A DNA stretch of 53,217 nucleotides from IMG/VR virus record IMGVR_UViG_3300009548_000009, positions 1-53,217 of that record; one strand, 5' to 3'. The notes under the pieces were generated by a model. It searched no databases and was not told the DNA's origin. It worked only from the letters and a program-made list of their open reading frames with translations. Position 1 is the first letter of the stretch, and each line of letters begins with the position of its first letter. Made by a program: the position numbers and the translations under genes. Origin of the DNA: a virus. Lineage: Duplodnaviria; Caudoviricetes. Positions 939 to 22,777 of this stretch are shown here, piece after piece.

Positions 939-1981
939 TGTACTCTCTTACCTCTCGAATGCCATTTGCCGGTTGTATCTGACCAGTATAGATTTCCGTC
1001 AACACCTATCGCGTAAAAGTCGCCAGTTGACGTTATTGCTGGCTCAGTTCCGCTTTCGAGCTGGCCGCCTAATGATTTCCACGTAACGCCTTTGTCTGTG
1101 CTATACCACAACGCATTGTCGCTTCCTTTCATGCAGACGTATGTACCGCATGCTACCGGACTGCCGACCATTGTGATCTGTTTGGGGGTTGGTGCTGGTG
1201 TAACACCTTTAAACCTGTTCTTCATCGTAACGTTCGTAGGCGGCCATAGTGCCATCCAGGCAGCATACCATGAAGCGAATCTGTTATAGACTGCGTTCAT
1301 GTTATTTCCGTATCCACTCCAGACGCCTATTCCTGCACAGGGTACGCCGTGAGCTTCCATTTCATATATCAAATTGATGTAATCCTGCGCGCTACTGGTT
1401 TTGAGTATATGATCAAGATGATCAATGCCTCTTTTTGCTAATTGGGCTTGCATCATCCAGCTTCCAACTAAAATGCCTATCTCCTTAACGCCATGCTTTT
1501 GTGCATCAAGCATGCCCGGGCCTACAACGTCCCATCCCCAGAAGTTAGCAGACGCATCATATGTTTCTAAATAAGAAGCAGCGCCGAATCCGTGGACCGG
1601 CGATGGGTGTGTAGCGGCCCAGACATCATCGTTTGTTCCGCCACCTGTACCCATGCCGCCATAGTCTAAAAAGATCAAGCTATTCATTATAGCATCAATC
1701 TCATTAGCTTGTTCTGATTCGCCGCCTGCAGCGTGGTAGCCGAGTGAAACTATTTTAGGATAGTAGGTTGATGTGCCATCCCACCCAGCCTTTCCATCGT
1801 TGCCGTTATTCAGGATTGGTGAGAGACCTGCGGCATTGCAGTCTAGGACGAACTGAGCAAGTGGAATTACACCCCCGCCGTGTACGACAAGGTGCGCGTC
1901 TATAATGCCAACTGTTCTAAGTGCGCCTAAGTTTGAATAACTGTCTCCAGCTATAAAGTAAGCCATGCTGTGGTTCATCAT
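935..1981 (-). CDS. Putative lytic enzyme: possible glycoside-hydrolase-like N-domain, Pro/Thr linker, C-terminal PLL-type lectin repeats
   Basis: VTPAPTPK linker followed by repeats KGSDNALWY...WKSLGG and IGVDGNLYW...WHSRG, typical of fucose-lectin propeller blades. The catalytic domain assignment is inference. ATGA overlap with the peptidase. Confidence 0.5.
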   Translation of the reverse strand: MMNHSMAYFIAGDSYSNLGALRTVGIIDAHLVVHGGGVIPLAQFVLDCNAAGLSPILNNGNDGKAGWDGTSTYYPKIVSLGYHAAGGESEQANEIDAIMNSLIFLDYGGMGTGGGTNDDVWAATHPSPVHGFGAASYLETYDASANFWGWDVVGPGMLDAQKHGVKEIGILVGSWMMQAQLAKRGIDHLDHILKTSSAQDYINLIYEMEAHGVPCAGIGVWSGYGNNMNAVYNRFASWYAAWMALWPPTNVTMKNRFKGVTPAPTPKQITMVGSPVACGTYVCMKGSDNALWYSTDKGVTWKSLGGQLESGTEPAITSTGDFYAIGVDGNLYWSDTTGKWHSRGKRVQ

Positions 1982-2011
1982 TTTGGTTGCTTTTAAGTTT
2001 GTAACTGATAT

Positions 2012-2158
2012 TTACGCGCCAAATAACGCGCTGAATCCTAATGCTATCAGGAGCGCCTTAAACAGGACGCTGCCGAGTAGTCCAAACGCACCACCTAGAA
2101 TCCACGTAACTATGAGTGTGAGCAATGCATCGTAGTTGACTGCAATAATTTCTAGCAT
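2012..2158 (-). CDS. 48-aa membrane protein, holin-like (not in ORF track)
   Basis: MLEIIAVNYDALLTLIVTWILGGAFGLLGSVLFKALLIALGFSALFGA, with GGAGG RBS upstream; precedes the two putative lytic enzymes. Confidence 0.6.
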   Translation of the reverse strand: MLEIIAVNYDALLTLIVTWILGGAFGLLGSVLFKALLIALGFSALFGA

Positions 2159-2179
2159 TTTTTAGTTCTCCCTCCTGTG

Positions 2180-2326
2180 TTATTTTTGCCTCTCAACGAT
2201 CTTCTTTTTGATTTCTGCTTTGATCTCTGCCTTCATTACGCCTTCTTGCCAGTCCTTGTTTCGCCCCCACCTCGTCGGAGGCCGCTCAAGCATTCGATCG
2301 ATTGTGGTCTTTTTATTGTCAGTCAT
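2180..2326 (-). CDS. Small basic hypothetical protein
   Basis: Likely start MTDNKK inside ORF 2180..2392; fills the gap in the operon. Confidence 0.5.
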   Translation of the reverse strand: MTDNKKTTIDRMLERPPTRWGRNKDWQEGVMKAEIKAEIKKKIVERQK

Positions 2327-2351
2327 TTTTGCCTTTTTGTATATTAGCCTT

Positions 2352-2786
2352 TTAATTCCTACCGCAGCGGACAGATGCAATACTACCGCCATGATCTAGA
2401 ATCATAAACGTTCGTGTCCATGGTCCAAATGCCGCGGCTTTTCTCAATAACTTAACTGCCTCAACATCGCCTTTCATTTCGTGTATTAAAATGTGAACAT
2501 CAACAGGACAGCAGAGCAGGTTGACAGGATTGTTATTCGTCTTGTCTTTATCTTTATGATGGATATGATAGCCTGCGGGAATCTTAACTTTAAAGTGTTG
2601 TTCCCACGCTTTTCTATGATTGGCTGAGAATGCTCGCCTATATCCCCGTCCAGCTAAAGGAACTGATGATTGTGCAAGTTCCGGTTCTATACGTTCAACT
2701 GGCTCAAGGAACCTGCGGCTATACTCCTGAGCATCGGCCCTTATCTCAGCAAGGTATTCATCTAAAGTTATATTTGATTTTGTCAT
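2352..2786 (-). CDS. HNH endonuclease
   Basis: HIHHKDKDKTNNNPVNL...HILIH motif. Confidence 0.85.
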   Translation of the reverse strand: MTKSNITLDEYLAEIRADAQEYSRRFLEPVERIEPELAQSSVPLAGRGYRRAFSANHRKAWEQHFKVKIPAGYHIHHKDKDKTNNNPVNLLCCPVDVHILIHEMKGDVEAVKLLRKAAAFGPWTRTFMILDHGGSIASVRCGRN

Positions 2787-2798
2787 TCGTGTTTTGTG

Positions 2799-2812
2799 TT
2801 AACCCAGGTTAA
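2799..2812. promoter_or_regulatory. Palindrome TTAACCCAGGTTAA (one mismatch from TTAACCTAGGTTAA)
   Basis: Intergenic; related copies at 19331, 19457 and 48727. Confidence 0.55.
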
Positions 2813-2813
2813 T

Positions 2814-3647
2814 CTAAAGTGATAGTTCTCCGTTAATAAACAACGGCTTTACGTCCTCGCTTACGCTTTCCTGTATCTCCTCATCGCTGAAATACTGCTC
2901 AACGTTCTCGCTGAACTCGCACATGTACTCTTGCCTGAACCACCACTCACCTAGAACGGCTTTTTCTTCTTTTAAAAAAGCTTTAGAGATTCGCGGGCAT
3001 TCGTAGGCTGTTACCTTAAAGCCCTGCCACCCACCTAGGTTATCAGTTACATAATCGTTCCAGGATTCGTAAAAGAAGCCTCTGCGTCCGAATGGTGTTG
3101 AAAGTAAAATTAATCGGCCTTGAGAAACCGCAAGCATTGGCCGTAAGGAGCCGTAATAGAGCTCATCATCCTCGATTTGTGCTGCTTCATCAATAATCAT
3201 CAGACTCGGCGCGCTGAACCCTCGCACTGTCTGCGGCTTGGATGGTAGGCTTATTATCCTGCTTCCATTCGTTAATTCTAACGTATGCTTATTCTCTGCA
3301 TCGCTCGGGACCGGCCTGCCACGTTCCTGGTAAAAATCTGCTACTTTCTTAAATAGTTCTGTTGATTGCCGGTATCCTCTGCTTATGATGAGCACAAGGG
3401 AGTTAGGATTGTAAAGGGCGCTGTGTAACGCTATTATAGCGGTTATTGTTGATTTGCCTGACTGCCTGGCACAATTCAATATTATCTTTTTTTCTTCTGA
3501 GGTGAGCAGTTTGCGCTGCCAAGGATCGGGGTCAATGCCGAGTAATTGAGCGAATTTGATCGGGTTGATAGCAAGAGCTAGTTCTTTGCGTTCGCTTTCG
3601 TTTAAGGTTAGGATTGCGTCGTCAAATCTACTAGTACTAATCGCCAT
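2814..3647 (-). CDS. terL: Terminase large subunit, ATPase domain only
   Basis: PWQ adenine motif, Walker A ARQSGKS, Walker B MIIDEAA, coupling motif LSTP, QEYMCEF. Ends at 277 aa with no nuclease domain. Confidence 0.92.
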   Translation of the reverse strand: MAISTSRFDDAILTLNESERKELALAINPIKFAQLLGIDPDPWQRKLLTSEEKKIILNCARQSGKSTITAIIALHSALYNPNSLVLIISRGYRQSTELFKKVADFYQERGRPVPSDAENKHTLELTNGSRIISLPSKPQTVRGFSAPSLMIIDEAAQIEDDELYYGSLRPMLAVSQGRLILLSTPFGRRGFFYESWNDYVTDNLGGWQGFKVTAYECPRISKAFLKEEKAVLGEWWFRQEYMCEFSENVEQYFSDEEIQESVSEDVKPLFINGELSL

Positions 3648-4221
3648 CTGAATCTAATTGCTCGCTAAACTCTATGCGTTTTTCAATCGGTAGCGTTTTA
3701 AGAACTTCTTTAAGCTTTGCGACATCAGGGCCAGTTTTAACCTCACCACTGAGCTCTACCTTTTGTTTGTCAAGCCCAAGGATCTGCATAAACTTATCTA
3801 CACCTAGCTCCCAGCGTTTCCGCGCTTCTTTTGAGCCTATCTCACCTGTTTGCATATTCTCAAAGGCTTTATCGGCTATTTCAAGGGCTTCTTTTGAGCG
3901 CTGGTCTTTGAACTTTAATATTCTGTTCTCAAACGTCTGTAGTGCTTTCTTTTGCAGGTAATCGTCATATGCACGTGTGCGTTGCACCCAGTTATGATTT
4001 GCACTAAGACGGCCTAGGTAGCGTAAATATGATGGTTTCTTGTCGGCTTTCTGGCGTAGCTTTTCAAGTGAGCGTTCTGGACCCATATCACGGTACATAC
4101 AAAAAAGATCAAATGCTTTAGACCGCTCGGTATTCTGACGCGCCCATAATTCAGCTTCGCTGGGCAAAGATATCTCCAATAGAAAGAACGGAAAAATAAT
4201 ACTTAAGTATTGTGTGTACAA
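3637..4221 (-). CDS. terS: Terminase small subunit (probable; true start likely TTG at 4167)
   Basis: W...E.SKAF..F..YRDMG.ERSL...W..R..AYD pattern and C-terminal KVELSGEV; overlaps the start of TerL. Confidence 0.7.
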   Translation of the reverse strand: MYTQYLSIIFPFFLLEISLPSEAELWARQNTERSKAFDLFCMYRDMGPERSLEKLRQKADKKPSYLRYLGRLSANHNWVQRTRAYDDYLQKKALQTFENRILKFKDQRSKEALEIADKAFENMQTGEIGSKEARKRWELGVDKFMQILGLDKQKVELSGEVKTGPDVAKLKEVLKTLPIEKRIEFSEQLDSDGD

Positions 4222-5015: not shown

Positions 5016-5231
5016 TTAACTTGCTGAATACACTCTTTTATTACATTCTTCACAGGCAATTAAGCCCTTATCGGCGTCTTCTGGATCTATATAGACAATA
5101 AACGCTATTTCTCCATCGCAGATCTCACGGCCACATTCTGAGCAGTAGACTTTACTTAGCATCTTTTCTATGGTTAAGCCAGAATACTGGGCATATCCAA
5201 TATCCTGGGCAACGTTTCTCGCAGTAAGCAA
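5016..5231 (-). CDS. Small Zn-finger protein (true start probably MLSKVYC at 5163)
   Basis: CSECGREI...CEEC. Confidence 0.55.
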   Translation of the reverse strand: MLTARNVAQDIGYAQYSGLTIEKMLSKVYCSECGREICDGEIAFIVYIDPEDADKGLIACEECNKRVYSAS

Positions 5232-5412
5232 CTTCTTTAGGTGAGTGAGTAATTATACAAGAGACTACTAACTTTGCTTGGCTCATCTTAACACTAGGAT
5301 CTATCTGTTCGTGGGTAGGTGTGTTACCGTATAGTGGTGAGCCTATCTTTGCGAGCCGTTTTAAGGCCATGACGTGCTGTAAAAGTATTTGTTGCTCAGA
5401 TTTGCTAGTCAT
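5152..5412 (-). CDS. Fusion of paralogs of micro-genes 6624-6791 and 6496-6627
   Basis: N-half MTSKSEQQILLQHVMALKRLAKIGSPLYGNTPTHEQID; C-half VVSCIITHSPKEVAYCEKRC..YWIC. Confidence 0.7.
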   Translation of the reverse strand: MTSKSEQQILLQHVMALKRLAKIGSPLYGNTPTHEQIDPSVKMSQAKLVVSCIITHSPKEVAYCEKRCPGYWICPVFWLNHRKDAK

Positions 5413-5534
5413 TTTTCTGCCTTTTTTTCATCCTTCAATGATTCTTTGAATTGTTTCCTATATGCTATGGGGCCTTTCTTATCCGCTTCTTTCACGGTTT
5501 CAAAATTATCTAACCAACACGGTTCCCTATTCAT
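5409..5534 (-). CDS. 41-aa micro-protein ending KKAEK (not in ORF track)
   Basis: Junction-motif RBS and ATG; ATGA overlap with the next gene. Confidence 0.6.
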   Translation of the reverse strand: MNREPCWLDNFETVKEADKKGPIAYRKQFKESLKDEKKAEK

Positions 5535-5558
5535 TTTTCAACCTCTTTTTTATATATA

Positions 5559-6395
5559 TTAATGTTTTAAGTGCATAAACATACACGATAATAGCGCACC
5601 GCTCTTAGTAAATTCATCTATATCCACAAAGCAACTATCCAAACCCAGCTTAGCCGCGATTTCTGTTAAGGTGTTGTTCTTATGTGTGGTTTCGGGTGTT
5701 TCATCGTGAACCATGCCGTTATATATCGTGTCTTCTATTCTAAGAGAGTTAGTTATGCCCTCATAGCAGTCTTCTAAAGCTACGTTTATTACATTAAATT
5801 CCTTATTTAATAATTCCCAATCGTCGTCAGTAATAACTTCCTTACACGCTAGTATAGTATCGCTATCTACTGGAAATATGAAACAATCCACGTGGTAAAG
5901 GTAGTTGTCTAAGGCTTTTAATTTTATTATCTCTGCGTCAAACGCTTTTTCAATCCAGCATAAGGTTTCATATGAGGTAAATAACCCATAACTGGCTATA
6001 TACTGGTTATCGCGTATCCATTTAAGCTCGCCTTCGCCCTCAAAATACGCTGGTGGTGTATAACATGTGTACCCAAGAGTTTCTAAGAAGCCCAAGGCTA
6101 CCCATTCCTCACCGACTCGCCCATCTGCTCTAAAATGACTTATTACTGCGGTTTTATCTAAGTGCGGTAATACACATGCCGGATTTGTGGCATAAGTCTG
6201 ATCCTGTAACCCTGGTGTTGGTGGCAACAGGTACACCAGTGCGTGATTGGTAATTATCATATACAACGCCATAAACTGTTCTAGTGCGGCATCTAGGTTT
6301 ATTTCGCGTTCCTTTTGGGGTAAATCGAGCATCCATATGTTGTTTATTGTAGTGGTGCTCAGGTACCTGGGTGGGCACATAAGTAGTTCTTTCAT
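5559..6395 (-). CDS. Amidinotransferase/pentein-family guanidino hydrolase (resembles ArgZ/AgrE arginine dihydrolase domain, DDAH-like)
   Basis: LMCPP..INNIWM, QDQTYATN, FEGEGE, YHVDC and EFTKSGALLSCM, with catalytic His/Asp/Cys retained. Confidence 0.85.
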   Translation of the reverse strand: MKELLMCPPRYLSTTTINNIWMLDLPQKEREINLDAALEQFMALYMIITNHALVYLLPPTPGLQDQTYATNPACVLPHLDKTAVISHFRADGRVGEEWVALGFLETLGYTCYTPPAYFEGEGELKWIRDNQYIASYGLFTSYETLCWIEKAFDAEIIKLKALDNYLYHVDCFIFPVDSDTILACKEVITDDDWELLNKEFNVINVALEDCYEGITNSLRIEDTIYNGMVHDETPETTHKNNTLTEIAAKLGLDSCFVDIDEFTKSGALLSCMFMHLKH

Positions 6396-7003
6396 ATTTT
6401 GTTTATTCCTACTAACAGGAAATGGTATGGCACGCTGATAATCACCATGCAGCCGAAAAGGAAAAGGAAGAGTATATCTTCAAAAGGATAGTCGGTCATT
6501 TTTCATTAACTTCTGGATTTGTAACTCTAAACGCTGAGCATGTCCAATACATACTGCAGCACTTTTTACAGTAAGCGACTTCGATCGGGAAATATGTGAT
6601 CGGGCATGATACTACCTGTTTGCTCATTTTTTCAGGTCTTTTTGTTTTATATAATCTTCAAGTTCCTTAGCCCAAGCGTCTATCTGTTCGTGGGTAGGTG
6701 TGTTGCCATATAGTGGTGCTCCTATCTTTGCGAGCCGTCTTAGGGCCATGACGCGCTGAAGTAATACCTGCTGCTCAGATTTGCTAGTCATTTTTCAGCC
6801 CTCTTTTTCTTCATCTTCCTCGGACCTGTAGAACATACATGCAATGAGGTCAGTGTCTGGGTCTATTCTTGAATAAATACAACATTTCTCACAAGTCATT
6901 TTTCCACCTCTTTTTCTTCTATGATTACAACACCGTTTTCAAATCTCACCCGTTTCGTTCCGTCTGCAAGAATCGCATCAATAACATCCTCGCACGTAGT
7001 CAT
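6392..7003 (-). CDS. Chain of five coupled micro-ORFs: 6392-6499 (35 aa, hydrophobic), 6496-6627 (43 aa, Cys-rich), 6624-6791 (55 aa), 6795-6899 (34 aa), 6896-7003 (35 aa)
   Basis: Hand-translated. They tile the region end to end with ATGA overlaps or 3-nt gaps, each starting at a junction-motif copy. Confidence 0.7.
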
Positions 7004-8193
7004 TTTCCAGCCTCTTCTTCCTCACACTCACCTTCAAAATAATTTTTATCTTTATCAATCAAACCGAGTTTCTTTAATTTACATTCATCATCCTTAGAAG
7101 CGGGTAAGGTAACGTCAAAGCCTAACTCGTCATCTTCATCACTAAGCCAGCTAATATGGTATTTATTTAGATGTATCTTGTCTTTGGTCATTTTTCAGCC
7201 CCCATGGTCAAACACAAAAGGTTCTCCGTTTATGATGCCACAGCCAAAACCTTTACCTCCCGTTACCATACCAACATTGCCAACCCCACAACTCATGTAA
7301 CATTCGCGGTGATAATGGTAGTATGTGCCGTGCCGGTTAAATGTTGGATAGTTATTTGAGATATCATCGGTAACGTATTCTATATCATCACCTGTGATTA
7401 ATCTACCACAGATTATACAGGAACTTGGTTTAAAAATCATCATTTTTCAGCCTCTTTTTCTTTTCTTCTTTTCAATATTTCCTCTATTTTGTCAAGTTGT
7501 AATAACCAAAGGCGTACTGACTTTTTATCCCAAGTCATTTTTTCAGCCTCTTTTTCTTGCCTAATTATAAAGTTCGCCATTAGTTTTTCGATGAATATAC
7601 AATCCTCTACATTTCTATTACGCTTACCCGTAAGCCCGTTGAAATCCCCACAATATCTACACCTATTATAGGCAGTCATTTTTCAGCCTCTTTTCATATT
7701 TGCTACAACTAATATCAATAAAGTTAGGGGGAGACGTTACCCAAAATGTGCCGCCGATGGTGCACTCAATATCCAAATCACCACCCCAATCTGCCGTTAC
7801 GAGCCAAGGACTTTTGCAATTCTTACAGGACTGACAGAGTATTGGTTTATCATCTGTACATTCGTTATCAGTCATTTTTCAGCCTCTCTTTCACCCCGTA
7901 TTCATACGGTTTCCACTCACCCGGCAACATCCCCTTTAGCTTCTGTAAAAAATCACCCCTATCTTCATAACTGATTTGCAGTACTTCTTCTATCGTCGCA
8001 TTGTTAAATGCCATTTCTACTGCGCTGATTATCATGCTATTCAACTTATCTGACCTTGTCTGCTTTTTAGTCATTTTTCAGCCTCTTTTTCCTTCGTTAA
8101 ATCTAATACCTTATTGGTATTTTCACCACACAGCCACGGTTCACTATCAAAACAGCGATACCTGCAAAACGTACAAACTGATTCAAAAGTCAT
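7000..8193 (-). CDS. Chain of six coupled small ORFs: 7000-7191, 7195-7443, 7440-7679, 7666-7875, 7868-8074, 8071-8193 (several Cys-rich)
   Basis: ORF track plus the hand-translated 40-aa ORF 8071-8193; the five internal junctions each carry GAGGCTGAAAAATG or a close variant. Confidence 0.72.
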
Positions 8194-8803
8194 CTTTTAC
8201 TCTCCTCAAACTCAGCTTCGGATGTAAGTCCATCAGTGCAGCGCCTAATCCAACTTCCCATACAATAAGCGGATAGAACATAACCCGTTCCATGCCGCCT
8301 GTGCCTAACAGACCTGAAAACATCAAAGCGCCGCCTGCAAGCGTGATAATGCCTAATACTATCGAGACGTACGTAAACGGCGGATTAAACCGCTTGTAAA
8401 AGAAAAGCATAACGATTGCGCCAAATACGACTATCAACATTGCAGATGAAATATGCAGATACGGTGCATATTTAAATGGATGCAGCGAAGGGAATACCCC
8501 TACGCCAATTTGACCTAAGCAGGATATACATAAAAGCCCAGTGAATCGGCTGCCGAGCGTTTTACGTACCAGCAGCGCGCCTATTAGTGCGAGTGATCCA
8601 GCGGTTACAAGTGTAATGCCGAAAAGTAGTATCGTTGGCGACAGCGCACCCAGTTCACTGATCGTATCTAAGCGCACCGAATAGGTAGGGTTTAACGCTT
8701 CCATAACAGGTATAAGCAATAGTCCTAAAAATCCGGCCAAGAAAATTAGAGTGCCGCCGAGTTGTTGTTTATCAGTCATCGCTCGAATAAACCCCCGTTT
8801 CAT
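8183..8803 (-). CDS. DUF998-family membrane protein (true start probably MTDKQ at 8779)
   Basis: YS...TISELGA, GVGVFP, H..SA and GGMER motifs; about 6 TM segments. Confidence 0.75.
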   Translation of the reverse strand: MKRGFIRAMTDKQQLGGTLIFLAGFLGLLLIPVMEALNPTYSVRLDTISELGALSPTILLFGITLVTAGSLALIGALLVRKTLGSRFTGLLCISCLGQIGVGVFPSLHPFKYAPYLHISSAMLIVVFGAIVMLFFYKRFNPPFTYVSIVLGIITLAGGALMFSGLLGTGGMERVMFYPLIVWEVGLGAALMDLHPKLSLRRVKDDF

Positions 8804-9263
8804 TTTCGTCGCTTACATCGTGCGGCCATGTTCTAGCGATAACGATGCGCTCTATGCTGCCATCCTTGCGCTTAAAGATGTAACCAATGCGTCCAGGGTA
8901 TAATACATCAAGTTTATCGAAGTCGGTATCGCCTGGATATACTACCCTGAATAACTCCAGCGGCCCCCATCGCTTTGGGTTTACTTCTGCGATTGTATCT
9001 TCTGCCATTGCCTCTCAAATATGTTTAACAGTTTTGCCGTTGCCGAACGTACAACTCACGGCTTTCTTTGTTCGAGATATGAAATGCACGCAGTCGTAAC
9101 AGTTTCTAATTGACCGCGTACCCGTAGTTAATGAGTTCTTACCTGGCCATGGACACGGTACTTTGCCTATATTCTCTGAGGCCCCTGACCATTGGATCGG
9201 AACTTCATGTGTTGCTTCTATCGAGCTCGTGTTAGCCCGCCTCACCTTTGGCTGTGTTACCAT
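8772..9263 (-). CDS. Two small hypothetical proteins (8772-9008; 9015-9263, Cys-rich)
   Basis: Consecutive minus-strand ORFs. Confidence 0.6.
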
Positions 9264-9282
9264 CTTTAAACCTTTAAACAGA

Positions 9283-9612
9283 TCACCTCATAACCGTACC
9301 CATCACGATTAAAATTGCTCCTAAGAGCGCCCTAAAGACGCGCCCACCGTCGCGCATTATGTTGTGCACCTGGCCCTGTTCTATGTAGATACTACCTACA
9401 CCGTCCATGATAATCCAAACTCCTAGACCTACTAATAGCGCCCAGCCCCAGGTTCCGAGGCCTAAGAACGCCATGCACATTAGCGTTACGCCGATGTACG
9501 ACCGTATGATGCGACCGCCATCGAAAACCCAACCGTGAGCTCCTTTCGCTGCGATGCTAACTATCCCATCTAAGAAAAGGATGAGCCCTATTAATGCTGC
9601 TAACCAGATCAT
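9283..9612 (-). CDS. 4-TM membrane protein with internal duplication
   Basis: DGIVSI...H...DGGRIIRSYIG is repeated as DGVGSI...H...DGGRVFRALLG. Confidence 0.75.
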   Translation of the reverse strand: MIWLAALIGLILFLDGIVSIAAKGAHGWVFDGGRIIRSYIGVTLMCMAFLGLGTWGWALLVGLGVWIIMDGVGSIYIEQGQVHNIMRDGGRVFRALLGAILIVMGTVMR

Positions 9613-9615
9613 TTT

Positions 9616-10477
9616 TTACTCCCAACACATCGGATAGTACCAGTACCACTCCACTAATGAAGGGTCTACAGGGTCACGACGACCAGCTGGAATGGGCCAT
9701 TCTTTCTTTTCTTTTTGTTCTGTGTTAGTCATTTTTCAGCCTCTTTTTCTATAAGTTCTGAGTCTACGCATTGATAACAATAGTGAATATTTTTACTCCA
9801 TGGTGGGAGCCACAACTCTCCTTTAAATGGGTGGAAATAGTCACCGCGACAAACATCATAGCCAAAACGACAGGATTTCAATGGCTTATGTTGCTTGCTC
9901 CATAATGGTATTTCTATATTAGTACGATTACATCTCCACTTCATTTTTCAGCCCTCTTTTTTACATTTGTTCCATTCTTTTAAAACCGCGTTATTTTCAT
10001 TCTCTAATACCGGAATAGGCACAACGCTCTGGCAATAAGGACAAAGCACGTACGTCTTATCTCCGTCAAATGTCAGGTAGTGCTTTGGTATTATTGGCTT
10101 CCTGCATTTCTGATTTTGGCATTTGATAGGGGCGTTCACCTTAGCTTATCTCTTTAAGGATCTCGTCAAGCAATTTATGCCGCTTGTCCAACTCGCAATA
10201 ACTGCACCATAGTATTCCATCAACATAAACAGCATGCCCAGAAACGTGCTCGCCGCATCTATTACAGCGCCCAAATGTTAGTTCAGACATCTTTTACTCC
10301 TTTTTGTTTACACCGTATCCATTCGTGCTCAGGACAGTACTTGCGTTGCCTCCAGCCTTTAACCCGAACATAAAACTTGCCTTCCCATCGTCCTTTTTCG
10401 ACTTTTATTGGTGTGCTGCATCCTGGATAAGCGCATTTTTTAATGATAATATGGCGCTTGTCGACAGTCATTGGCAT
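9616..10477 (-). CDS. Five small ORFs (9616-9732, 9729-9944, 9948-10139, 10141-10290, 10283-10477), mostly Cys-rich Zn-binding
   Basis: Tightly packed ORFs with CxxC-type pairs; two were hand-translated. Confidence 0.62.
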
Positions 10478-11254
10478 TTATTCTTCCCTACTAGACGTCA
10501 TCATTATCCCCATGAATTCAGCTTCAGTTTGTATTCCTTTTCGAGCATTGCATTCTCGACATGCGAGCGCTACATTCGTTATATCATTAGAGCCGCCGCG
10601 TGATATAGGGATCTTGTGTTCTATTTCAAAATAATATTCGAGAGTACCGTTAATAAAAAATGATGCCCCACAATAATAGCAGCGGTGATTTTGTTGATCG
10701 GCTAAAGCTAAGACGTCTTTTTGTTTAACCACACCTTCATTCTGACGCGCTTTTACTCTTCGTCGGTGCGTGGCAATCTTCTTAATTGCTGCATATTTAA
10801 TATGGTTCTTCTTTTTACTCTCTATCGCAGATAAATTATCTGCTTTTCTTTGGCAGTCGCTACAACGCTTTTTTAGCGGGCTTCGTGCCATTAATATTAT
10901 TCCACAATCAATGCATTTAATCTCTTTATGAAATGGTCCTTTGTAGTTGTATGTCCTTATATGAAAATTCCAAGCTTTTTCTGCAGATATAGCAGTTGAA
11001 CATGAATGACAATATCTTCTATTCTTACCAGGTCCTGATAAAAGCATTATAGTACCACATTTTACGCACGGCTTAATCCTCGGTAAGCGAGGTTTATAAT
11101 AATATTTTGAACCCCCTTCGCGTTCTCTTTTTGCTCGCATTAATTCTGCATTGACTTTCTTCCTACACTCATCGCAATATTTTCTGAGCTTTGAGCGCCA
11201 ATACAAAGTCATAACCTTGCCGCAGTGCTCACATGTTTTTATTAGCGGTTCCAT
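10478..11254 (-). CDS. HNH endonuclease with three N-terminal Zn-finger repeats
   Basis: CYYCG...IEHKIPISRGGSNDITNVALACRECNARKG; repeated CxxCG...(Y/R)CxxC. Confidence 0.88.
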   Translation of the reverse strand: MEPLIKTCEHCGKVMTLYWRSKLRKYCDECRKKVNAELMRAKREREGGSKYYYKPRLPRIKPCVKCGTIMLLSGPGKNRRYCHSCSTAISAEKAWNFHIRTYNYKGPFHKEIKCIDCGIILMARSPLKKRCSDCQRKADNLSAIESKKKNHIKYAAIKKIATHRRRVKARQNEGVVKQKDVLALADQQNHRCYYCGASFFINGTLEYYFEIEHKIPISRGGSNDITNVALACRECNARKGIQTEAEFMGIMMTSSREE

Positions 11255-12127
11255 CTATTCTTCCTCTGGTAGCGCCATGCTTGCCTCACCTAGTGCTGAT
11301 TCTTCCTCTTCTGGTGATAGTTCGCTTTCTTCTTCTGAGGGCCCCGTCGAATATTCTAAGACGCACATACAATTAATGGTTTCAGAAGCTGGGCCGCTTG
11401 GATCACCAGGATATGCCAAATCGCCGTCTTCAAGTTCAAAAACGTCATCTATTGCGATTTCTGTGCCTTCAATTTCCTCGTGGCTAGGGCGTGGGTTTCC
11501 AGATGTAGTCCACCAAATTTTTGTTGCTCCGTCTGGAAGCAAGTCTTTAGCAGTTTCATTGCTCGCGTAAGAATATGCCCCGTGCGTCTCAGTAGTCGCA
11601 ATTGTACGCGCCCTACTATCTGATACATTATCAAAATCATCTACTAGATCATCGGCTATCTCGTCCTGTGTCTTACCCTCACTTACACCGCTTCTTAACG
11701 TATTCGCTAACCACTCCTGGTCTGTGTCAGTTATCCCATCAATCTTAGTTCCTGCGTGCTGATCCATCCATTCATCTGCATAATCCTGATAATCCTTTTG
11801 AATTATTTCCTCTGTCTTTTTAACTGGATTATGATGTTCTTTTACAAAGTCTTCAGCTTCCTCAGCGGCGTTGAGCCATACTTGCTTGAGTGCTCGAGAC
11901 CACATAGGTTTAAAGTTCACTTTGAAGAATAACGGTAAGCCTTCTATCGCCATTTTTGGTGTCCTTGAACGGACATAGCGTAAAATCAAAGGTTTCTGTT
12001 TGCGATAGACGGCGCGTATGATATTGTAGTTCTGACCGCCGTGAAACGCTCCTTTAGAGTCTTCACGTCCTATGATATTGTTCATGAGGAGTTTATGCCT
12101 GTGGATCAAGTTGGTTTTGCTTGCCAT
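11255..12127 (-). CDS. Minor head protein, Mu gpF/SPP1 gp7 family
   Basis: RARTIATTET, KIWWT...RPSH and YPGDPSG...ETINCMC motifs. Confidence 0.88.
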   Translation of the reverse strand: MASKTNLIHRHKLLMNNIIGREDSKGAFHGGQNYNIIRAVYRKQKPLILRYVRSRTPKMAIEGLPLFFKVNFKPMWSRALKQVWLNAAEEAEDFVKEHHNPVKKTEEIIQKDYQDYADEWMDQHAGTKIDGITDTDQEWLANTLRSGVSEGKTQDEIADDLVDDFDNVSDSRARTIATTETHGAYSYASNETAKDLLPDGATKIWWTTSGNPRPSHEEIEGTEIAIDDVFELEDGDLAYPGDPSGPASETINCMCVLEYSTGPSEEESELSPEEEESALGEASMALPEEE

Positions 12128-12758
12128 TTGTTCTTAGTTTATGTTTTGAGGCACGTTCTGAGGCACGTTCTAAAACAAAAGTAAGTCTTTGAATCGTTTC
12201 CTCTTTGAGGGCGCTTCTCTGTTCGTAATAATCCCACCACTCTTTAGCTGTGTTTACTTCGATTTGCAGTTGTTCAATGAGTGCGTCTTTCCGCCTGATC
12301 TCTTCTCTTTGGTTTCTGGTTAGTATCGTAAGAGTTTTTGCTCTAGCTTTCGGAGCACACCTATTATGAAAACGTGCATTAGAAACTTTTGCTTTACCTG
12401 GTTTTTTACAATATTCACAAATAAATTTTTTTAAAGGCTTGTTCGCGTACCACCGGCGCTCCCTTTCTAGGTAATATTCTCTATAACTCAAATCTTCTTT
12501 TATCCTTATCTTTGTTGCAGCCTCCTCTAAAAGACGACCGCAATAGTAGCAAAAATCAGTATTACTATTATTATTCCAATAACTGTTCTTACACCGAAGG
12601 CATATTCGTTCTCTAATGTTTTTCCCATGTGCTGAGTGATACTTACCTCTACATTCGGGATTGCAAAAATGCCTCTTGAGTCCTAGCTCGGACGAGCTAA
12701 TTTCTATTTCTTTTCCACACCAATCACAATTGACTATAACTGTCTTACGTAGCACCAT
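12093..12758 (-). CDS. Multi-Zn-finger protein with C-terminal coiled coil
   Basis: CDWCGK...FCNPEC, CLRC...CYYC and CEYC...HNRC. Confidence 0.7.
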   Translation of the reverse strand: MVLRKTVIVNCDWCGKEIEISSSELGLKRHFCNPECRGKYHSAHGKNIRERICLRCKNSYWNNNSNTDFCYYCGRLLEEAATKIRIKEDLSYREYYLERERRWYANKPLKKFICEYCKKPGKAKVSNARFHNRCAPKARAKTLTILTRNQREEIRRKDALIEQLQIEVNTAKEWWDYYEQRSALKEETIQRLTFVLERASERASKHKLRTNGKQNQLDPQA

Positions 12759-12797
12759 TCTGTGCCCCCTAAAAAGGAAAAAGCCGCATAAAGCGGC

Positions 12798-13640
12798 TTA
12801 TCGCTCACATCCTTTCGTGAACCAACCATATTCTGGTCTCCAACAATCCTGGCGTTCCTGTATTGGCTCAATTACTAAAGGAGGTTCTTTTTGATCGCCT
12901 ACTGCCTTTGCTTGCACGAACTTACTCTGGTCAAATACGTCTCTAAGGTGCTCAGTAAATCCTTCTATTCCCTCCTCATCTAGCGTTAATTTGCCAGAAC
13001 TGTAGATCTTTATATATTGAGTGGGGAGTTTATCACCCTTCCCGCGCATCCATTCCCGATATATACGCACCTCTGCCACATCAAGAATGCCTGGCTGCAT
13101 GTGATAATGACGCATTTCTTGTTGGTGTTGCTCGGTTATTGCTTTCTTGACGCTTTCGTCGTCGAGAAACAACATGTTAGAAAGCGGCGTGTTCTTCATG
13201 CTCACTGCATATTCCGTGTCTGGATGAAAGCGTTTTGCTCCCTCCTTTTTATTGAGCACGTCGCCTAGGTCTGGCATCTTTCCTCTCACCACTATATTGT
13301 GAATGGTCAGGTCGTCGCAATGGCTCTGTCTGATATAATCGATTGTTTCGTTCACTGGGAACTCAGCTCTCTCTTTACTTCGTCTAACGTCGTAGGTTAC
13401 CCCAACGTCTTCGACGCACTTCACTTTATGTCGTAGGAATTGAGGGAGGTCTGATTCTATCGGTTCGTTGTTCTTTAGCCAACCGCGCGATGCCATCAAG
13501 CGCAGTATCTTTTCTTGTTTCACCATCGGAATGATGCGGGTGAAGCAATTCGACGCAATGAACGACTCGGTTTTGATCTTCTTGTACAAAAGATTCGCAT
13601 CGGTCGTCGTTGCGACGCTTCGTTCGTCTATTTCATTCAT
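12798..13640 (-). CDS. Hypothetical protein (280 aa)
   Basis: Long ORF with no motif I recognise. Confidence 0.75.
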   Translation of the reverse strand: MNEIDERSVATTTDANLLYKKIKTESFIASNCFTRIIPMVKQEKILRLMASRGWLKNNEPIESDLPQFLRHKVKCVEDVGVTYDVRRSKERAEFPVNETIDYIRQSHCDDLTIHNIVVRGKMPDLGDVLNKKEGAKRFHPDTEYAVSMKNTPLSNMLFLDDESVKKAITEQHQQEMRHYHMQPGILDVAEVRIYREWMRGKGDKLPTQYIKIYSSGKLTLDEEGIEGFTEHLRDVFDQSKFVQAKAVGDQKEPPLVIEPIQERQDCWRPEYGWFTKGCER

Positions 13641-13704
13641 TGGTTTTTCAACTCTTTTTTTAAGTTAGGGGCTAACAGCCACATGACTACTAGCCTTTCC
13701 TACT

Positions 13705-14416
13705 TCATTTCAGCACTCCAAATACAATAACCACAGCCAGCACCCAGGGCACGATACAAAAAGCAACGGTCATCGCATGATCTTTTTTAGCATTCCGGTG
13801 TCGAAGGCAGTAGGAGCGGTAGCCCATTGGGATTAATCTGTTTATTCTAATATCCCTAATCTCTTCACGATAGCGTTCGATTCTTTTTTCTATTCTTTCA
13901 ATCTTTTTAGTCCTTTCCATTTAACCCCTCCTTATCTGAAATGTTCTGCAGTCTCATCATAACGCCCCACCCTCTGCTCAGCTTTTTCGGATCACCGGCA
14001 TAGGACGGGCATGCCTCGGTAAATGCGCTTATTGTTTCGCCTGTGTCCCTGCAGCGGATGTGTAGGTCTCTCAACGTATATGCCCGCCTGCAGGTGTGGC
14101 AGCGTTTTATTTTGGCCATTTCTTGCATAAGAGTTACACAGTACAAGCGTTAGGTCTAAGCTTATTAGCTCCTCGTGCTCGGTAGGAAGGTTAAACCCTC
14201 GTGCTTTGCAGTAGTACGCATTATGTCGTATGACTGCGTTCGAGCAGCTGTTACACGGCGAAGGAAGCTTCATTTTTCACCCTCTTTTATATTCGTATCC
14301 TGGTGCATCCATGCCTCTCTACAGGCTGAATGGATAGTGTACGGCATGGCATCCCTTACCCCACTATAATGTGGTTCGCGTGATTTTATCTCCCTGCCGC
14401 ATTGTTCGCACAGCAT
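13705..14416 (-). CDS. Small coupled ORFs (13705-13920 with C-terminal TM; 13907-14146 and 13992-14273 Cys-rich, overlapping, starts uncertain; 14270-14416 Zn-finger)
   Basis: ORF track plus the hand-translated 48-aa MLCEQCGREIK...KEGEK. Confidence 0.5.
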
Positions 14417-14419
14417 GTT

Positions 14420-14620
14420 TTACCTCTTAAGATGGTACATAATCCGCCTACCGTCAGTTGTTGAGAGCCACATACCTACCTTTCCATCCTGGCGTAGTTG
14501 CAGTAAATACCTACATGTCGTAGGCTGCGAGGTCTTTGTTGCTTTTGCTAGTTCCCGGGAAGTACAGGGGCCTATTTGTGCCATTGCTGTAAGATAAAGA
14601 CTCTCAGAATAGAGCTTCAT
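14420..14620 (-). CDS. Winged-HTH DNA-binding protein
   Basis: GPCTSRELAKATKTSQPTTCRYLLQLRQDGKV followed by a wing hairpin. Confidence 0.8.
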   Translation of the reverse strand: MKLYSESLYLTAMAQIGPCTSRELAKATKTSQPTTCRYLLQLRQDGKVGMWLSTTDGRRIMYHLKR

Positions 14621-14623
14621 TCT

Positions 14624-15571
14624 TCAACCGTAGCCAACATCATACTGTAATGGTTTTTGATCGCTTTCTTTCATCTCATGGAGTTTCATTTGAATCCTCA
14701 GAGCAAGTTCAAGCCGCTGTAAATACTCATGATAATCATCGCGCATTTTAGTAACTTCTGGATCGCTGTCAGGTATGCCTCTTCTTTGTAAGATATTCAA
14801 CAATGTAGCAAGCCCTGTGACTATTGATTCGCACGACATTACCATAAAGGCCGCGATATCTGCTCCGTTGAGTGTGATCTCAATCTCTTTAAGTTCTAGT
14901 TCCTCAACCATTTGATAGGCCTCATTTATTTGGTGATCTTAGATAGTTCGCTCTACAAGCGAGGTGCAACTGGTACTGCTCACCGTCTCGCATCCCAATA
15001 AGAATAGACTCGCGTTCCTTTATCTCCCTGCCGCAGTAGGTGCAATTTTCGGTCATTTTTCACTCTTCACGCGTACCAAAAGTCCCCCTCATATTTTCTA
15101 ATAAGTTTCATTCCTTCCGTGTACCCTGCTTCTTCTAGCACATCAAAACATAAATCATCTATCTTACTGTGAGCTTCTTCGTTATCAAAGATTCCAAGTT
15201 CCCCATTATAACTTAGGGCTTCCTTAACTTTCTTTTCAAATTCTTCTGGTGTCATTTTTCAATCTCCCATAAAATGTGCATATTCTTAGGCATGCCAAAT
15301 AGCAGCCACATCATGGTCCGGTAGTGCTTTTTTAAGGTGGTCATTTTTCATTCCCGATTAGCTGCCCAAGCGCAGTAATATCTTTTATTTCTGTATTTGG
15401 GATGGTTAACCAACTGTTGTCACATGAGGGGCATGCAGTAACCACCAACCCTTCCTTGTCAAATAAACATTCTGGTATAATCTCAAGTTGTTCTTTCTCG
15501 CAAAACGGACACGTTATAAATACAGATGTTGGTTCTGCTTTAGATTTTGGTTTTGGTGATGCTTTAACCAT
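14624..15571 (-). CDS. Small ORFs 14624-14911, 14922-15056 (Zn-finger), 15067-15255, 15341-15571 (Zn-ribbon)
   Basis: Consecutive minus-strand ORFs, several with junction-motif-like starts. Confidence 0.62.
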
Positions 15572-15574
15572 TTT

Positions 15575-16219
15575 TCAGCCACCTGATTTAAACTGCGTAG
15601 TGCTCGGAAGAAACTGGACAATACGAGGCCACTCGTCTCCCCGCTGGTTCTTTACGTTCTTCACCATCACTCTCACATGCTGGCCCAGGAGGTCATCAGT
15701 AGTCAGCGACTCAGGATACCCACCTAGTGTAACGCTAACTAAATCACGCAGTATTGAGCCTTCATTATAGTTTAGTGACATGCGCCTGGTTATCTCGCCA
15801 AAAGAGGTTTCAAAAGAGATGTATAAAAACGTCCTGACTCCAGGGCTGCCGTCTGGTGTTTTATTGTAATAGTCTGGATCTTCGCTTGTCCATGTTTTCC
15901 TTATTACAGCTTCGTAAACGTCTTCTTTTACTGCACTAAGATGCTTCTTGCGGATTATTTCTATTGTTTCATGCTTTGGGCCGCGTTCTTCTGTTGAGCT
16001 TGCAGAATTTGGAGTATCAACATTTACTACTTTATATGGCCTTTCATCTGCCCTTTCTGCGTTAACTTCTGAGGGAGTCATATAACGCGGTTCTTTTTTG
16101 GGTTTAGTTACTTTAAATGCCTTTGCTGCTTCATCCTCTTCAGACTCACTGGGGATAAATTCTTCCTCTTTTCTGGCCTGTTCAGCTTTCCATTCTTCTT
16201 CTGTTTTTAGTTCTTTCAT
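15575..16219 (-). CDS. Probable phage single-stranded DNA-binding protein (DUF669-like OB fold)
   Basis: YEAVI...F.T......S.L..L......DDLLGQHVRVMV......WPRI pattern. Start moved to MKELKT, which follows a junction motif. Confidence 0.55.
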   Translation of the reverse strand: MKELKTEEEWKAEQARKEEEFIPSESEEDEAAKAFKVTKPKKEPRYMTPSEVNAERADERPYKVVNVDTPNSASSTEERGPKHETIEIIRKKHLSAVKEDVYEAVIRKTWTSEDPDYYNKTPDGSPGVRTFLYISFETSFGEITRRMSLNYNEGSILRDLVSVTLGGYPESLTTDDLLGQHVRVMVKNVKNQRGDEWPRIVQFLPSTTQFKSGG

Positions 16220-16347
16220 TTTTCTGCCTCTTTCGTAATTGAGACTATTCCCCATTCTATACTTCCGTCTTCTCTTTTTATTCGTTTGGCTTCTGCACGA
16301 ATTCCCTTTGTCACAATAGTTACTTTAGTTGGATGATCTGTCATTTT

Positions 16348-16530
16348 TCACCCCAATATCACCTTTTTTAAGATCTCTTCAACCATCGCCGATACTGGCA
16401 GCATTTCATCGTGCGCCATTTTCTCTACTGTTTCGCGTATATCAGGTCCGAGCCAGATGTAGAGCTTTCTGTATCCTTCCTCTGCTCTTCTCCTTTCCCA
16501 TAACATCTTTTTACTTTGATATTTTACCAT
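16348..16530 (-). CDS. Ribbon-helix-helix-like regulator
   Basis: KLYIWL strand, then a helix, then VSAMVEEIL. Confidence 0.6.
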   Translation of the reverse strand: MVKYQSKKMLWERRRAEEGYRKLYIWLGPDIRETVEKMAHDEMLPVSAMVEEILKKVILG

Positions 16531-16823
16531 CTTACTAGTTTCAGATTTTAATGTTGAGTCTTAGTTTATAGACTTCCTCAGCTAACGCGCAGAGGGCCTC
16601 TGCGAGCAGGAGCACGTCGCGACTGTACAATTCTTTACATTCATCTTCTTGTATTTCGCTCAGTCTGTGGTCAAGTTCCAGGAATCCCAACGTTATCACT
16701 CCTTATTACAACTTTACGTTCAAGCGTCGTGCAAGCATATCAAAACCCTTAAAGATCAAGAGCCCTTCAACCAAGACTCCGACGCCTATGCAAAGTTCAA
16801 TCACAATCAGTTCGATTATCATA

Positions 16824-17180: not shown

Positions 17181-17415
17181 ACCACACTTTCTCTGTTCTG
17201 ACGTATCCTTCCTTTTCTAATGTTCTGATCCGATGATACAGCATAGGTTGTTTTAATCCGCTGAACCGACCGAGCACAAGACACATCCAAATCATTTTTA
17301 CGTTACTGCCTGGCCGGTCGCGGAGGCAGTCAAGTATTCCCTGATCCAAAAGATCAAGTTCGCTGCTAGAGTCGGTTCGCCATTCACGGTACTTGGATGT
17401 CTGTCTCTTGAGCAA
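17155..17415 (-). CDS. Winged-HTH protein
   Basis: LDQGILDCL...PG...LYHRIRTLEKEGYV. Confidence 0.7.
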   Translation of the reverse strand: MLKRQTSKYREWRTDSSSELDLLDQGILDCLRDRPGSNVKMIWMCLVLGRFSGLKQPMLYHRIRTLEKEGYVRTEKVWYERKCYVT

Positions 17416-18052
17416 TATGCGCCTCCTCGTTAACCTGGATTAATCCTTCAGTATGCCGTTTTTCTTGGACTGATCTCCGTATATCCTCAATCTGCCTTAG
17501 GTGCTCTTTAACACTGTCTTCTAGCTGTGAGATTACTTCCCAGATAGAATTGAATTCTTTGGTAATTTGCTCATGTGTTAAATCATGGTTCATCGTACGC
17601 CTACCTTGATGATTAACGAAAGACCGTATAGGATTATGACCGTTGCAATGCCGTTTAAAAACAGGAACCAGTACAGCTTAGCAACTGTAACCCATGTTTC
17701 ACGAAAAAGAGTATGCCGCCTATTAATTTTAGTTGTGGTTGTGATATTAGCAGTATTAGCAGCCATCTTTATCCCCCCATTGATTACAGGAATGATCTTT
17801 CTCAAAATAAGCACGCTGCGGGATACACCAGCGGTGCGGAGCGTAGCTGTCTGAGTTACGCACGTTTATGCAGGTGTCGCACCTTCTTTCCTGAGACATT
17901 CAGATGCACCCCCATTCATAAGAAAGCACTGGTCTTATAAAAACGTTTATGCGCTGGCGCTGGTCACACTGGTGGCATGTGTGCATAAAAGCCTGCTCCT
18001 CTTCACCTAGTGAAGCGCCGCAATATTTACAGTGCTCGCCGTCGATGATCAT
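17384..18052 (-). CDS. Four small ORFs (17384-17593 coiled coil; 17590-17767 TM; 17756-17899 and 17900-18052 Cys-rich)
   Basis: They tile the region with overlapping starts and stops; two were hand-translated. Confidence 0.58.
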
Positions 18053-18738
18053 TTTTCAGCCTCTTTTTCTTCTAATCCAACTGCTTTGTCTTTGTTTAGC
18101 GCACCCTGAAGGTTAGCACCCCAAAGGTTAGCACCCCAAAGGTCAGCACCCCAAAGGTTAGCACTCTGAAGGTTAGCACTCTGAAGGTTAGCACCCCAAA
18201 GGTTAGCACCCCGAAGGTTAGCACGCTGAAGGTCAGCACCCTGAAGGTCAGCACCCCGAAGGTTAGCACGCTGAAGGTCAGCATCCCGAAGGTCAGCACC
18301 CTGAAGGTCAGCATCCCGAAGGTCAGCACCCCAAAGGTTAGTACCCTGAAGGTTAGCATCCTGAAGGTCAGCACCCCAAAGGTCAGCACCCCAAAGGTTA
18401 GCACTCTGTAACATCTGTGGTGTAAACCACGATTCCAAATCGGCGATGTTGAAGATACTACGCGCTACTGCTGCGAATGCTTCTTTACAAGCTCGGAGTT
18501 TATAGCCACGTTTGATTACCCACCCATCTGGGTAATACTTATCAGCTACGTCGTGTACAATATCATCTCGTATCTGGTCTGGAAACAACACTTCAAATTT
18601 AATATGCGGTCTTTTTCCATAACGTAGGTCATCATCAAGCGTTGCTAAAAGTTCATCATGCGAACACACTTTCGGTTGTGCGTAAACTTTCCATTCTCCA
18701 TCTATCTTTTCGGTTATTACCGCTAAACCTTGGCACAT
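18049..18738 (-). CDS. Pentapeptide-repeat protein
   Basis: 20 A(D/N)Lxx repeats after a ~110-aa unique domain; ends EKEAEK. Confidence 0.93.
   Translation of the reverse strand: MCQGLAVITEKIDGEWKVYAQPKVCSHDELLATLDDDLRYGKRPHIKFEVLFPDQIRDDIVHDVADKYYPDGWVIKRGYKLRACKEAFAAVARSIFNIADLESWFTPQMLQSANLWGADLWGADLQDANLQGTNLWGADLRDADLQGADLRDADLQRANLRGADLQGADLQRANLRGANLWGANLQSANLQSANLWGADLWGANLWGANLQGALNKDKAVGLEEKEAEK
18103..18402 (-). repeat. 20 x 15-bp tandem repeat encoding the pentapeptides
   Basis: Unit GCT-RAC-CTT-YRG-VRT. Confidence 0.95.
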
Positions 18739-22203: not shown

Positions 22204-22260
22204 GATGAGCTTCGTTATTTCGCTTTTTGCTTATTTCACGAAATTATTTCTCACCACATT

Positions 22261-22776: not shown

Positions 22777-22777
22777 T

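Follow-up and report, generated by a model that had tools for sequence, protein, structure and literature searches.

A repeated translation junction in the micro-gene array of an uncultured wetland phage as a probable short-homology joint for cassette turnover

The micro-gene array and its junction motif

The window analysed here is the whole virus record IMGVR_UViG_3300009548_000009, from an uncultured tailed phage (53,217 bases; estimated completeness 93%). All of its genes lie on the minus strand, and between the ParB-like and terminase genes they include an array of about 47 small genes (18069-5152), in which one short stop/Shine–Dalgarno (SD)/start sequence recurs at the gene boundaries. 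The array genes are co-oriented, mostly tiny (30-290 amino acids, aa) and tiled by stop/start overlaps; they were called by a greedy choice of open reading frames (ORFs) and are not a curated annotation. Genes at the motif junctions encode proteins of 30 to about 226 aa, mostly 34-93, which is a wider range than the 34-80 aa given in a preliminary description of this DNA. Its statement that these genes are unrelated largely stands, since an all-against-all blastp comparison of 51 array proteins related only g14416 to g15056, and g5412 to g6791 plus g6627.

The 21-mer GAAAAAGAGGCTGAAAAATGA has four exact copies, at 7440, 8071, 9729 and 18049, where they had been reported; all are on the minus strand, and none occurred in 100 shuffles. 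With up to three mismatches allowed, 12 sites were found, again all on the minus strand and all within 5409-18069, where 0 were expected. A looser regular expression recovered 13 full sites from 18063 to 5545, and the core TG[AG]AAAA(A)ATG stands ahead of 23 of the 47 called array starts (18052 to 5412), in agreement with the further core and variant copies noted earlier. The consensus of the 23 core junctions is AAAAAGAGGCTGAAAAATGACT. The structural half of the genome contains no site with three or fewer mismatches and only two loose look-alikes, at 26292 and 19953, which bears out the claim that the motif is not placed at structural-gene junctions. The motif is purine-rich and without self-complementarity, and no inverted repeat or hairpin was found in it.

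The joint is 21-23 nt long and consists of an A-rich run, GAGG at -12 to -9 (about 7 nt before the ATG), a 7-nt spacer containing TGA, the ATG, and then A(CT). Across the 23 core junctions it supplies, as had been proposed, the SD-like GAGG, the start codon and usually the stop of the upstream gene. This stop is the TGA of ATGA in 13 junctions, the TGA inside cTGAaaaATG, 3 nt before the ATG, in five, and a third-frame stop slightly downstream (+5, +11) in two; the remaining three comprise stops at -13 and -27 and one in-frame read-through. The fullest form of the joint, CTGAAAAATGACTGA, terminates all three frames. The upstream proteins end variously in EKEAEK, in EG or GG, or in KRLKND, and because these unrelated proteins read the same letters in differing frames, the motif is conserved as DNA or RNA and not as a peptide; the preliminary description was right on both points. 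In its layout the joint has the properties by which a translationally coupled junction is defined, namely, a stop overlapping or near the next start and an SD inside the end of the upstream gene, and coupled translation of the neighbouring genes would be expected from this arrangement.

Across 20 micro-genes common with the relative L010 the ratio of nonsynonymous to synonymous polymorphism (pN/pS) is 0.14, and across 19 common with the relative L009 it is 0.17, the motif-encoded gene ends being left out. By this measure the micro-genes, most of them ORFans, behave as real genes under purifying selection. Twelve micro-proteins were compared with Pfam and PHROG (10 per library, 8 in both), and none gave a match above threshold. 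Promoter-like sites (41 against 37.2 expected) and terminator-like sites (16 against 14.9 expected) are not enriched in the array. Its single strong terminator-like hairpin lies directly after g13640 (12781-12799, minus strand), and may divide the array into two transcription units.

Motif junctions compared with other gene starts

The predicted pairing with the canonical anti-SD sequence, from which that of the host may differ, is -5.6 kcal/mol for motif starts and -5.3 kcal/mol for other starts, a difference that is not significant. Motif junctions are predicted to be more accessible: their mean unpaired probability is 0.67, whereas non-array genes average 0.56 (p = 2e-4). At the phage's 57 remaining gene starts, those of the structural genes among them, the extended motif is lacking and only a weak preference for AAAA-ATG is seen.

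The motif is associated with variable genes. Distant homologs were found for 7 of 22 motif genes against 18 of 24 other genes (Fisher p = 0.007), and the conserved backbone genes are mostly without the motif while variable genes carry it. Orthologs of g10290, g8193, g17593 and g8803 in the relative G005 are preceded by the motif, which is absent from these genes in the window, and the opposite is seen for g7875; the motif therefore follows the junction and not the gene. Since a signal serving translation alone should persist on old genes, its presence on variable genes argues that the motif tracks recent turnover.

The spacer letters differ between lineages. In the window the prevailing form is GAGG-CT-GAAAAATG (9 of 18 sites), while G005 and L129 have CC or CT, G004 has GRGG-T, G001 and G003 have TTT (13 of 19), and L151, a 4.2-kb contig of micro-genes only, has GAAGG-T (11 of 14). 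Together with the lack of the motif at structural genes and anti-SD pairing that is no stronger than elsewhere, these lineage-specific spacers support the earlier suggestion that the conservation extends beyond what a ribosome-binding site needs.

Junctions and cassettes along the array

All junctions and cassettes are described here in the direction of transcription and lie on the minus strand; the differences from other genomes could each have arisen by gain or by loss. The first exact copy (18049..18069) joins the pentapeptide-repeat gene, whose product ends in EKEAEK, to g18052. The pentapeptide-repeat gene itself (18049-18738) contains 15-nt periodic repeats (18101-18408); a contig from run X5, one of four runs considered below, is without 15 letters at 18385, and L010 aligns here in many registers. 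Further on, the slot occupied by g16344 (42 aa), with its two bounding junctions (16216..16361), has three different fillings in the window, L009 and L010. Three core junctions of the form TGAAAAATGAC precede g15344, g15255 and g15056 (15053..15361), and a variant copy with three mismatches precedes g14273 (14270..14290), at which L010 has an extra 257-bp gene between two motif copies.

The second exact copy (9729..9749) lies between g9944 and g9732. The block of these two genes (9617..9940) is missing in L010 and in an X5 contig, with the joint in AAAAATGA. The third exact copy (8071..8091), between g8193 and g8074, forms the left arm in two cases of deletion or insertion. It is followed by a copy with one mismatch (7872..7892) between g8074 and g7875, which the upstream gene reads in the third frame to end in KERLKND, and by a copy with two mismatches (7676..7696) between g7875 and g7679, the right arm of a 395-bp polymorphism; the corresponding two-gene cassette block g8074 and g7875 (7674..8068) is missing in contigs from X3, X4 and X5. 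Within the 79-aa g7679, a copy with one extra A (7536..7556) contains an internal start at 7538. The extra A removes the in-frame stops, and two cassettes are therefore fused in g7679, with the motif-encoded EKEAEK in the middle of the protein. The last exact copy (7440..7460) separates g7679 from g7443.

Two variant copies (6896-6916 and 7000-7020) flank the 35-aa g7003, and another variant, GAGGGCTGAAAAATGA, precedes g6791 (6788..6808) and forms the right arm of a seven-gene indel, the block 6810..8067 that is missing in L010 and in an X5 contig. The flanks of this block overlap by 24 letters within the motif (16 by the read tool), and for six of its seven genes the relatives compared contain no homolog. 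The last copies, 5531-5551 and 5409-5429, belong to g5534 and g5412, and the block that contains them (5152..5551) is missing in L010. The gene g5412, which starts at a motif copy, is a diverged, fused duplicate of g6791 and g6627 in which their junction has been lost; 6812-6666 and 5432-5287 are 84% identical.

Breakpoints between the window and a close relative

L010, a contig of 13.8 kb recovered from a different sample, is 83-97% identical to the window. Inside the array the two differ by 12 indels or replacements, that is, 24 breakpoints, 18 of which fall within -25 to +10 of a start codon (expected 12.8%, p = 5e-12). Motif junctions hold 14 of the 24 (expected 6.2%, p = 1.5e-11), and among the 18 start-located breakpoints the share at motif junctions, again 14, exceeds the 49% expected (p = 0.012). 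The alignment of relatives, proposed in the preliminary description as a test of whether gain and loss breakpoints fall in the motif, thus came out positive, and the refuting outcome named there, breakpoints independent of the motif, was not observed.

Six of the array indels are flanked by 8-24-nt direct repeats of the start junction, exactly one copy of which is retained in the shorter genome. The overlap at the joint is 24 letters for the seven genes at 6810-8067, 19 for the extra L010 gene at 14270-14288, 17 for an extra L010 gene with a different start context, AAGGAGGGNTTARATGG, 11 for g15255, which is missing in L010, and eight each for g9944 plus g9732 and for an extra L010 gene at 6633-6641. 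No direct repeats of start junctions were found at the three indels between the window and L010 outside the array.

At L010 9182-9287 (minus strand; about 14115-14124 of the window) the homolog of g14273 contains a 131-bp insert flanked by a 10-bp direct repeat. A tRNA of 106 nt is predicted there by Rfam (30.9 bits against a gathering score of 29), and none by ARAGORN.

Cassette turnover in other contigs and relatives

The runs that contain window sequence are peat and wetland metagenomes. The phage is present in four of them (X2-X5) as long pieces at least 99% identical to the window; these data are contigs assembled with 31-letter words, and the parts of the window without contig cover were left uninterpreted. 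Contigs from X3, X4 and X5, which represent three studies, join 7673 to 8069, so that g8074 and g7875 are gone. At this joint 21 letters fit both sides, and they are the motif copies 7676-7696 and 8071-8091. In X3 the flanks of the joint differ from the window in 0 of 642 and 6 of 1182 letters, and because the flanks are thus more than 99% identical, a difference of two genes separates almost identical genomes. X5 also has joints of the L010 type, and a contig from X2 joins the motif copy at 9747 to that at 14295. Contigs depart from the window at 9726 (X3), 18049, 16221 and 15266, all of which are junctions. Two further, weak joints, 6916 to 9728 and 9752 to 15241, whose support on one side is just 25 letters long, were set aside as evidence. 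Assembly artefacts were considered and rejected: with a length of at most 25 nt the repeat falls below that of the 31-letter words, which makes a false contig join unlikely, and L009, which comes from another sample, has the gene order of the window.

The complete relative G001 contains a 165-bp cassette, consisting of the motif, a 46-aa ORF and the motif again, in two copies that are 100% identical and 597 bp apart; on either side the identity stops within the motif, and the flanking sequences are different. A comparison of G001 with G003 shows replacement of all the cassettes that lie between two motif copies, and the gene order of the window differs from that of G005 at several places within a collinear backbone. 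A motif-led run of micro-genes also occurs at a second site in L120 (1075-2068, 992 bp), after the homolog of a 174-aa gene (22261-22785), where the window has just 60 bp (22197-22258); one of the L120 cassettes is weakly similar to g6899 (41%, E = 8e-5).

Searches for an exact 18-mer gave 7 viral contigs, 3 of them relatives, and 62 contigs in metagenomes, of which 9 were flagged as relatives or as array-bearing (L009 and L010 among them); the other 53 were single matches without similarity, about the level of chance. Of the two gene probes applied to viral contigs, g6395 found L010 only and g7443 found no match. A pentapeptide probe gave 39 loci, mostly unrelated repeat proteins, of which only L014 (G004) was used.

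The joints in L010, the X3-X5 polymorphism and the G001 duplicate support the earlier proposal that genes are gained, lost or shuffled at the motif, and their overlaps suggest short-homology recombination as the probable step.

Proposed mechanism and alternative explanations

With moderate confidence, we interpret the motif as a translational-coupling joint that doubles as a short-homology site for cassette turnover. Such a joint would close one micro-gene and open the next within the co-oriented accessory array, and its accessible SD-like GAGG, together with TGA stops in up to three frames, would allow a ribosome finishing one gene to start the next. About 20 letters recur in direct orientation some twenty times within 13 kb and are also present in related phages. 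Because of these direct copies, and of those in co-infecting relatives, the motif could be the main short-homology substrate of the region. The exchange could proceed by unequal crossing-over, by template switching as the DNA replicates, or by crossing-over of relatives that infect the same cell, and any of these would lead to the loss, insertion, duplication or swapping of entire genes. Every product would be viable, since the stop, ribosome site and start of each neighbour would stay intact. Repeated exchange would also keep the copies alike within a lineage while lineages drift apart, and such homogenisation fits the lineage-specific spacers.

Several observations weigh against this interpretation. 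For recombination of the RecA type, about 21 nt is a short length, and no recombinase was recognised in the 93%-complete record with the ERF, RecT, tyrosine or serine recombinase models. Six of the 24 breakpoints against L010 lie away from starts, four within genes and two at or near gene ends, and a simple indel at 15346-15586 has 10 unrelated letters at its joint, so that recombination between the window's own copies does not explain it. At orthologous junctions the motif varies, by eye, about as fast as silent sites, which speaks against strong constraint site by site. Moreover, surviving indels must hit gene borders, and these are all alike here, so that the enrichment at the motif and the flanking repeats are partly expected from selection alone; homology may have caused the events, or selection may have retained the tidy ones.

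This last point leads to the explanation that the motif is a translation signal only, a good site for coupled re-initiation with an accessible SD, an A-rich spacer and ATGA, around which selection purges indels that damage a neighbour. The correct spacing of GAGG from the ATG, the ATGA overlap in 13 of the 23 junctions, their higher unpaired probability and the weaker AAAA-ATG-A preference at other genes of the phage all agree with it, and the start-associated sequences of Cluster K mycobacteriophages have been so read by their authors in the portion of that report considered here (PMC3203893). However, SD pairing is predicted to be no stronger than elsewhere, the structural genes, which need most protein, do without the motif, and the motif stands on variable and mostly not on conserved backbone genes, is gained and lost between orthologs, and varies in its spacer letters by lineage. 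A translation signal also leaves unexplained the 100% identical cassette copy of G001 that ends in the motif on both sides, as well as the two-gene polymorphism among genomes more than 99% identical, and we therefore regard it as unlikely to be the whole explanation. The extended motif could instead be the RNA or DNA site of a phage factor that switches the accessory genes jointly, for instance a repressor of translation or an endoribonuclease similar to RegA or RegB of T4, with the lineage variants reflecting co-evolution with the factor. Such a role would be compatible with cassette turnover. It is favoured by the unstructured motif, its limitation to one gene class and its lineage-specific variants, and the T4 RegB/S1 site, as far as the portion of PMC1702504 considered here describes it, shares the architecture of GGA followed by an A-rich stretch at early-gene ribosome sites. 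Nevertheless, no candidate factor was found (the RegB and RegA models had no match in the record, but nor did they match the controls), and a regulator would not by itself account for the breakpoints or the cassette duplicates; we consider it distinctly improbable.

Active movement of cassettes by a dedicated, integron-like machine, in which a phage nuclease or recombinase recognises the motif, is very improbable indeed. The events are precise and scar-free, and the nearest candidates, three HNH proteins and a ParB-like protein with a nuclease domain, are in part encoded inside or next to the array (HNH genes 16824-17180 and 10478-11254; ParB-like gene 19952-21001). However, the tyrosine recombinase model PF00589, which matched 14 of 14 control genomes, and the serine recombinase/resolvase model had no match in the 53-kb record, the motif is without an inverted repeat or hairpin, and the HNH genes are themselves variable insertions. 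The overlaps vary from 8 to 24 nt and other start contexts (AAGGAGGGNTTARATGG) bound indels too, as plain homology would predict. A stronger form of the short-homology interpretation is also improbable, though somewhat less so. According to it, the joint is an evolved universal adapter, an integrase-free exchanger acting at the level of translation, so that whatever small ORF it flanks could enter every slot in every related phage and be expressed immediately; the exchange would have active help, such as breaks made at or near the motif by the HNH or ParB-like nucleases, with excised circles as intermediates. An adaptive 'plug-in' purpose of the joint is conceivable.

The evidence supports placing the array within linker-mediated modular shuffling, with a translation junction serving as the linker. 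In the open-access papers searched, no account was found of recombination that uses a stop/SD/start junction as its joint. The accessory regions of phages have the fastest turnover of anti-defence and host-takeover genes, and how single genes enter and leave while sparing their neighbours is mostly unexplained. If the interpretation is correct, cassette turnover would follow a simple, enzyme-free rule, and there would be a lead to the function of the mycobacteriophage start-associated sequences, which are unexplained. Variants of the motif identify arrays of this kind in several uncultured phages from peat and wetland, and could help to find more of them and to catalogue their micro-genes.

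Comparison with known systems

Integrons consist of the IntI tyrosine recombinase, attC hairpin sites formed by imperfect inverted repeats, an attI site and promoter-less cassettes transcribed from a common upstream promoter. The array resembles them in its co-oriented, unrelated small genes, in the repeated site that bounds them and in the gain, loss and reshuffling of whole cassettes. However, neither an IntI match nor an attC-type hairpin site nor attI was found here, and the repeated site is a translation signal at which exchange is apparently driven by homology. The phrase 'like an integron array without an integrase' in the preliminary description is thus apt as an analogy, no integrase having been found, but nothing resembles attC and the array is not an integron. 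The nin region of phage lambda also comprises small accessory genes with ATGA-type overlaps, which lie between the replication and the late or packaging genes and are mosaic among relatives; to our knowledge, nin-type junctions have no common conserved sequence of 21 nt.

The closest system in function is that of the promoter-early stem-loops (PeSL) of T4-type phages. In the parts of the two reports considered here (Arbiol et al. 2010, PMC2839356; Comeau et al. 2014, PMC4122927), PeSL recombination explains the indels between RB49 and phi1, and mini-circles are demonstrated experimentally; the authors draw the comparison with integrons, report no integrase and equate PeSL with the 'linker' of Botstein's modular theory. 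As far as these parts describe them, PeSL are likewise short conserved regulatory repeats between small non-essential ORFans in a plastic region, and in the array, too, the repeated element marks the limits of indels and replacements among close relatives. However, a PeSL of about 100 bp contains a sigma-70-like promoter and a terminator hairpin and makes each cassette its own transcription unit, whereas the joint described here, 21-23 nt long and with neither promoter nor hairpin, acts at the level of translation through its stop, SD and start. The cassettes of the array appear from their sequence to be chained in one message, without promoters or terminators of their own. The joint therefore does not fall under the definition of PeSL.

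In appearance, the closest system is that of the start-associated sequences (SAS) of Cluster K mycobacteriophages. In the portion of the report considered here (Pope et al. 2011, PMC3203893), SAS are 13-bp asymmetric repeats with an SD core, found in a single orientation a few nucleotides ahead of the ATG of unrelated genes, all in the non-structural half; they contain letters beyond those that pair with 16S rRNA, are absent from the host genome and sometimes include the upstream stop. Its authors suggest that SAS act in translation initiation or bind a factor, and an additional inverted-repeat element accompanies about half of them. The motif is similarly an asymmetric sequence with an SD core that occurs in one orientation before unrelated genes, all of them non-structural. 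However, the G+C-rich 13-bp consensus of SAS is not matched here, the phages are not kin of Cluster K, and gene gain and loss are not linked to SAS in that portion of the report. The RegB/S1 target of T4 is described, in the portion of Durand et al. (2006, PMC1702504) considered here, as an 11-nt single-stranded site with GGA and an A-rich part at the ribosome sites of early genes; it resembles the motif in being an SD-containing, A-rich, single-stranded site common to one class of genes, but it has other letters and is defined by cleavage. The model for RegB homologs found no match in the record, nor did it match its control.

General features of the phage genome

The Mu-type portal gene (50259-52055, minus strand) is followed by genes for an SbcD/Mre11-like exonuclease (47555-48526) and for a protein with a domain of the UDG superfamily (46210-47508). 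The capsid protein gene (42671-43861, minus strand) comes after the portal gene in minus-strand order and precedes the gene of a tape measure protein of 1944 aa and the tail genes. The ParB-like gene (19952-21001, minus strand) precedes the array, inside or next to which HNH genes occur at 16824-17180 and 10478-11254, and the small (3637-4221) and large (2814-3647) terminase genes, both on the minus strand, follow it. Among about 35 window proteins scanned, the matches related to DNA were the ParB-like protein, the SbcD/Mre11-like exonuclease, the UDG-superfamily domain and three HNH proteins, and none of the proteins scanned was recognised as a DNA polymerase, helicase, primase, integrase or known single-strand-annealing recombinase.

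A megablast comparison of the array and 20 kb of structural genes with 50,697 phage records gave no match, and the best match of the portal protein to a cultured phage in a tblastn search was of 38% identity (Arthrobacter phages). No prophage relatives were found in the reference genomes scanned with the single portal sequence or with an alignment of eight portal sequences.

The large terminase gene is seemingly interrupted. The 277-aa ORF (2814-3647) matches the N-terminal ATPase part of terminase families only, and after it, within the region 935-3647, come a gene for an HNH endonuclease (2352-2786), a pair of small ORFs and an ORF of 348 aa without a family match; the HNH segment 2189-2785 is missing in L010.

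Repeats of other kinds were also observed. The tape measure gene contains 66-bp tandem repeats (33646-34052), and the repeated TACCGTTAAAAAATG was resolved as this tandem repeat. A second repeat (41140-41363) lies inside a 422-aa gene at 40737-42005. In the relative G001, a direct terminal repeat of 226 bp (1-226 and 57731-57956; 99.6% identical) is consistent with either a circularly closed assembly or terminal redundancy.

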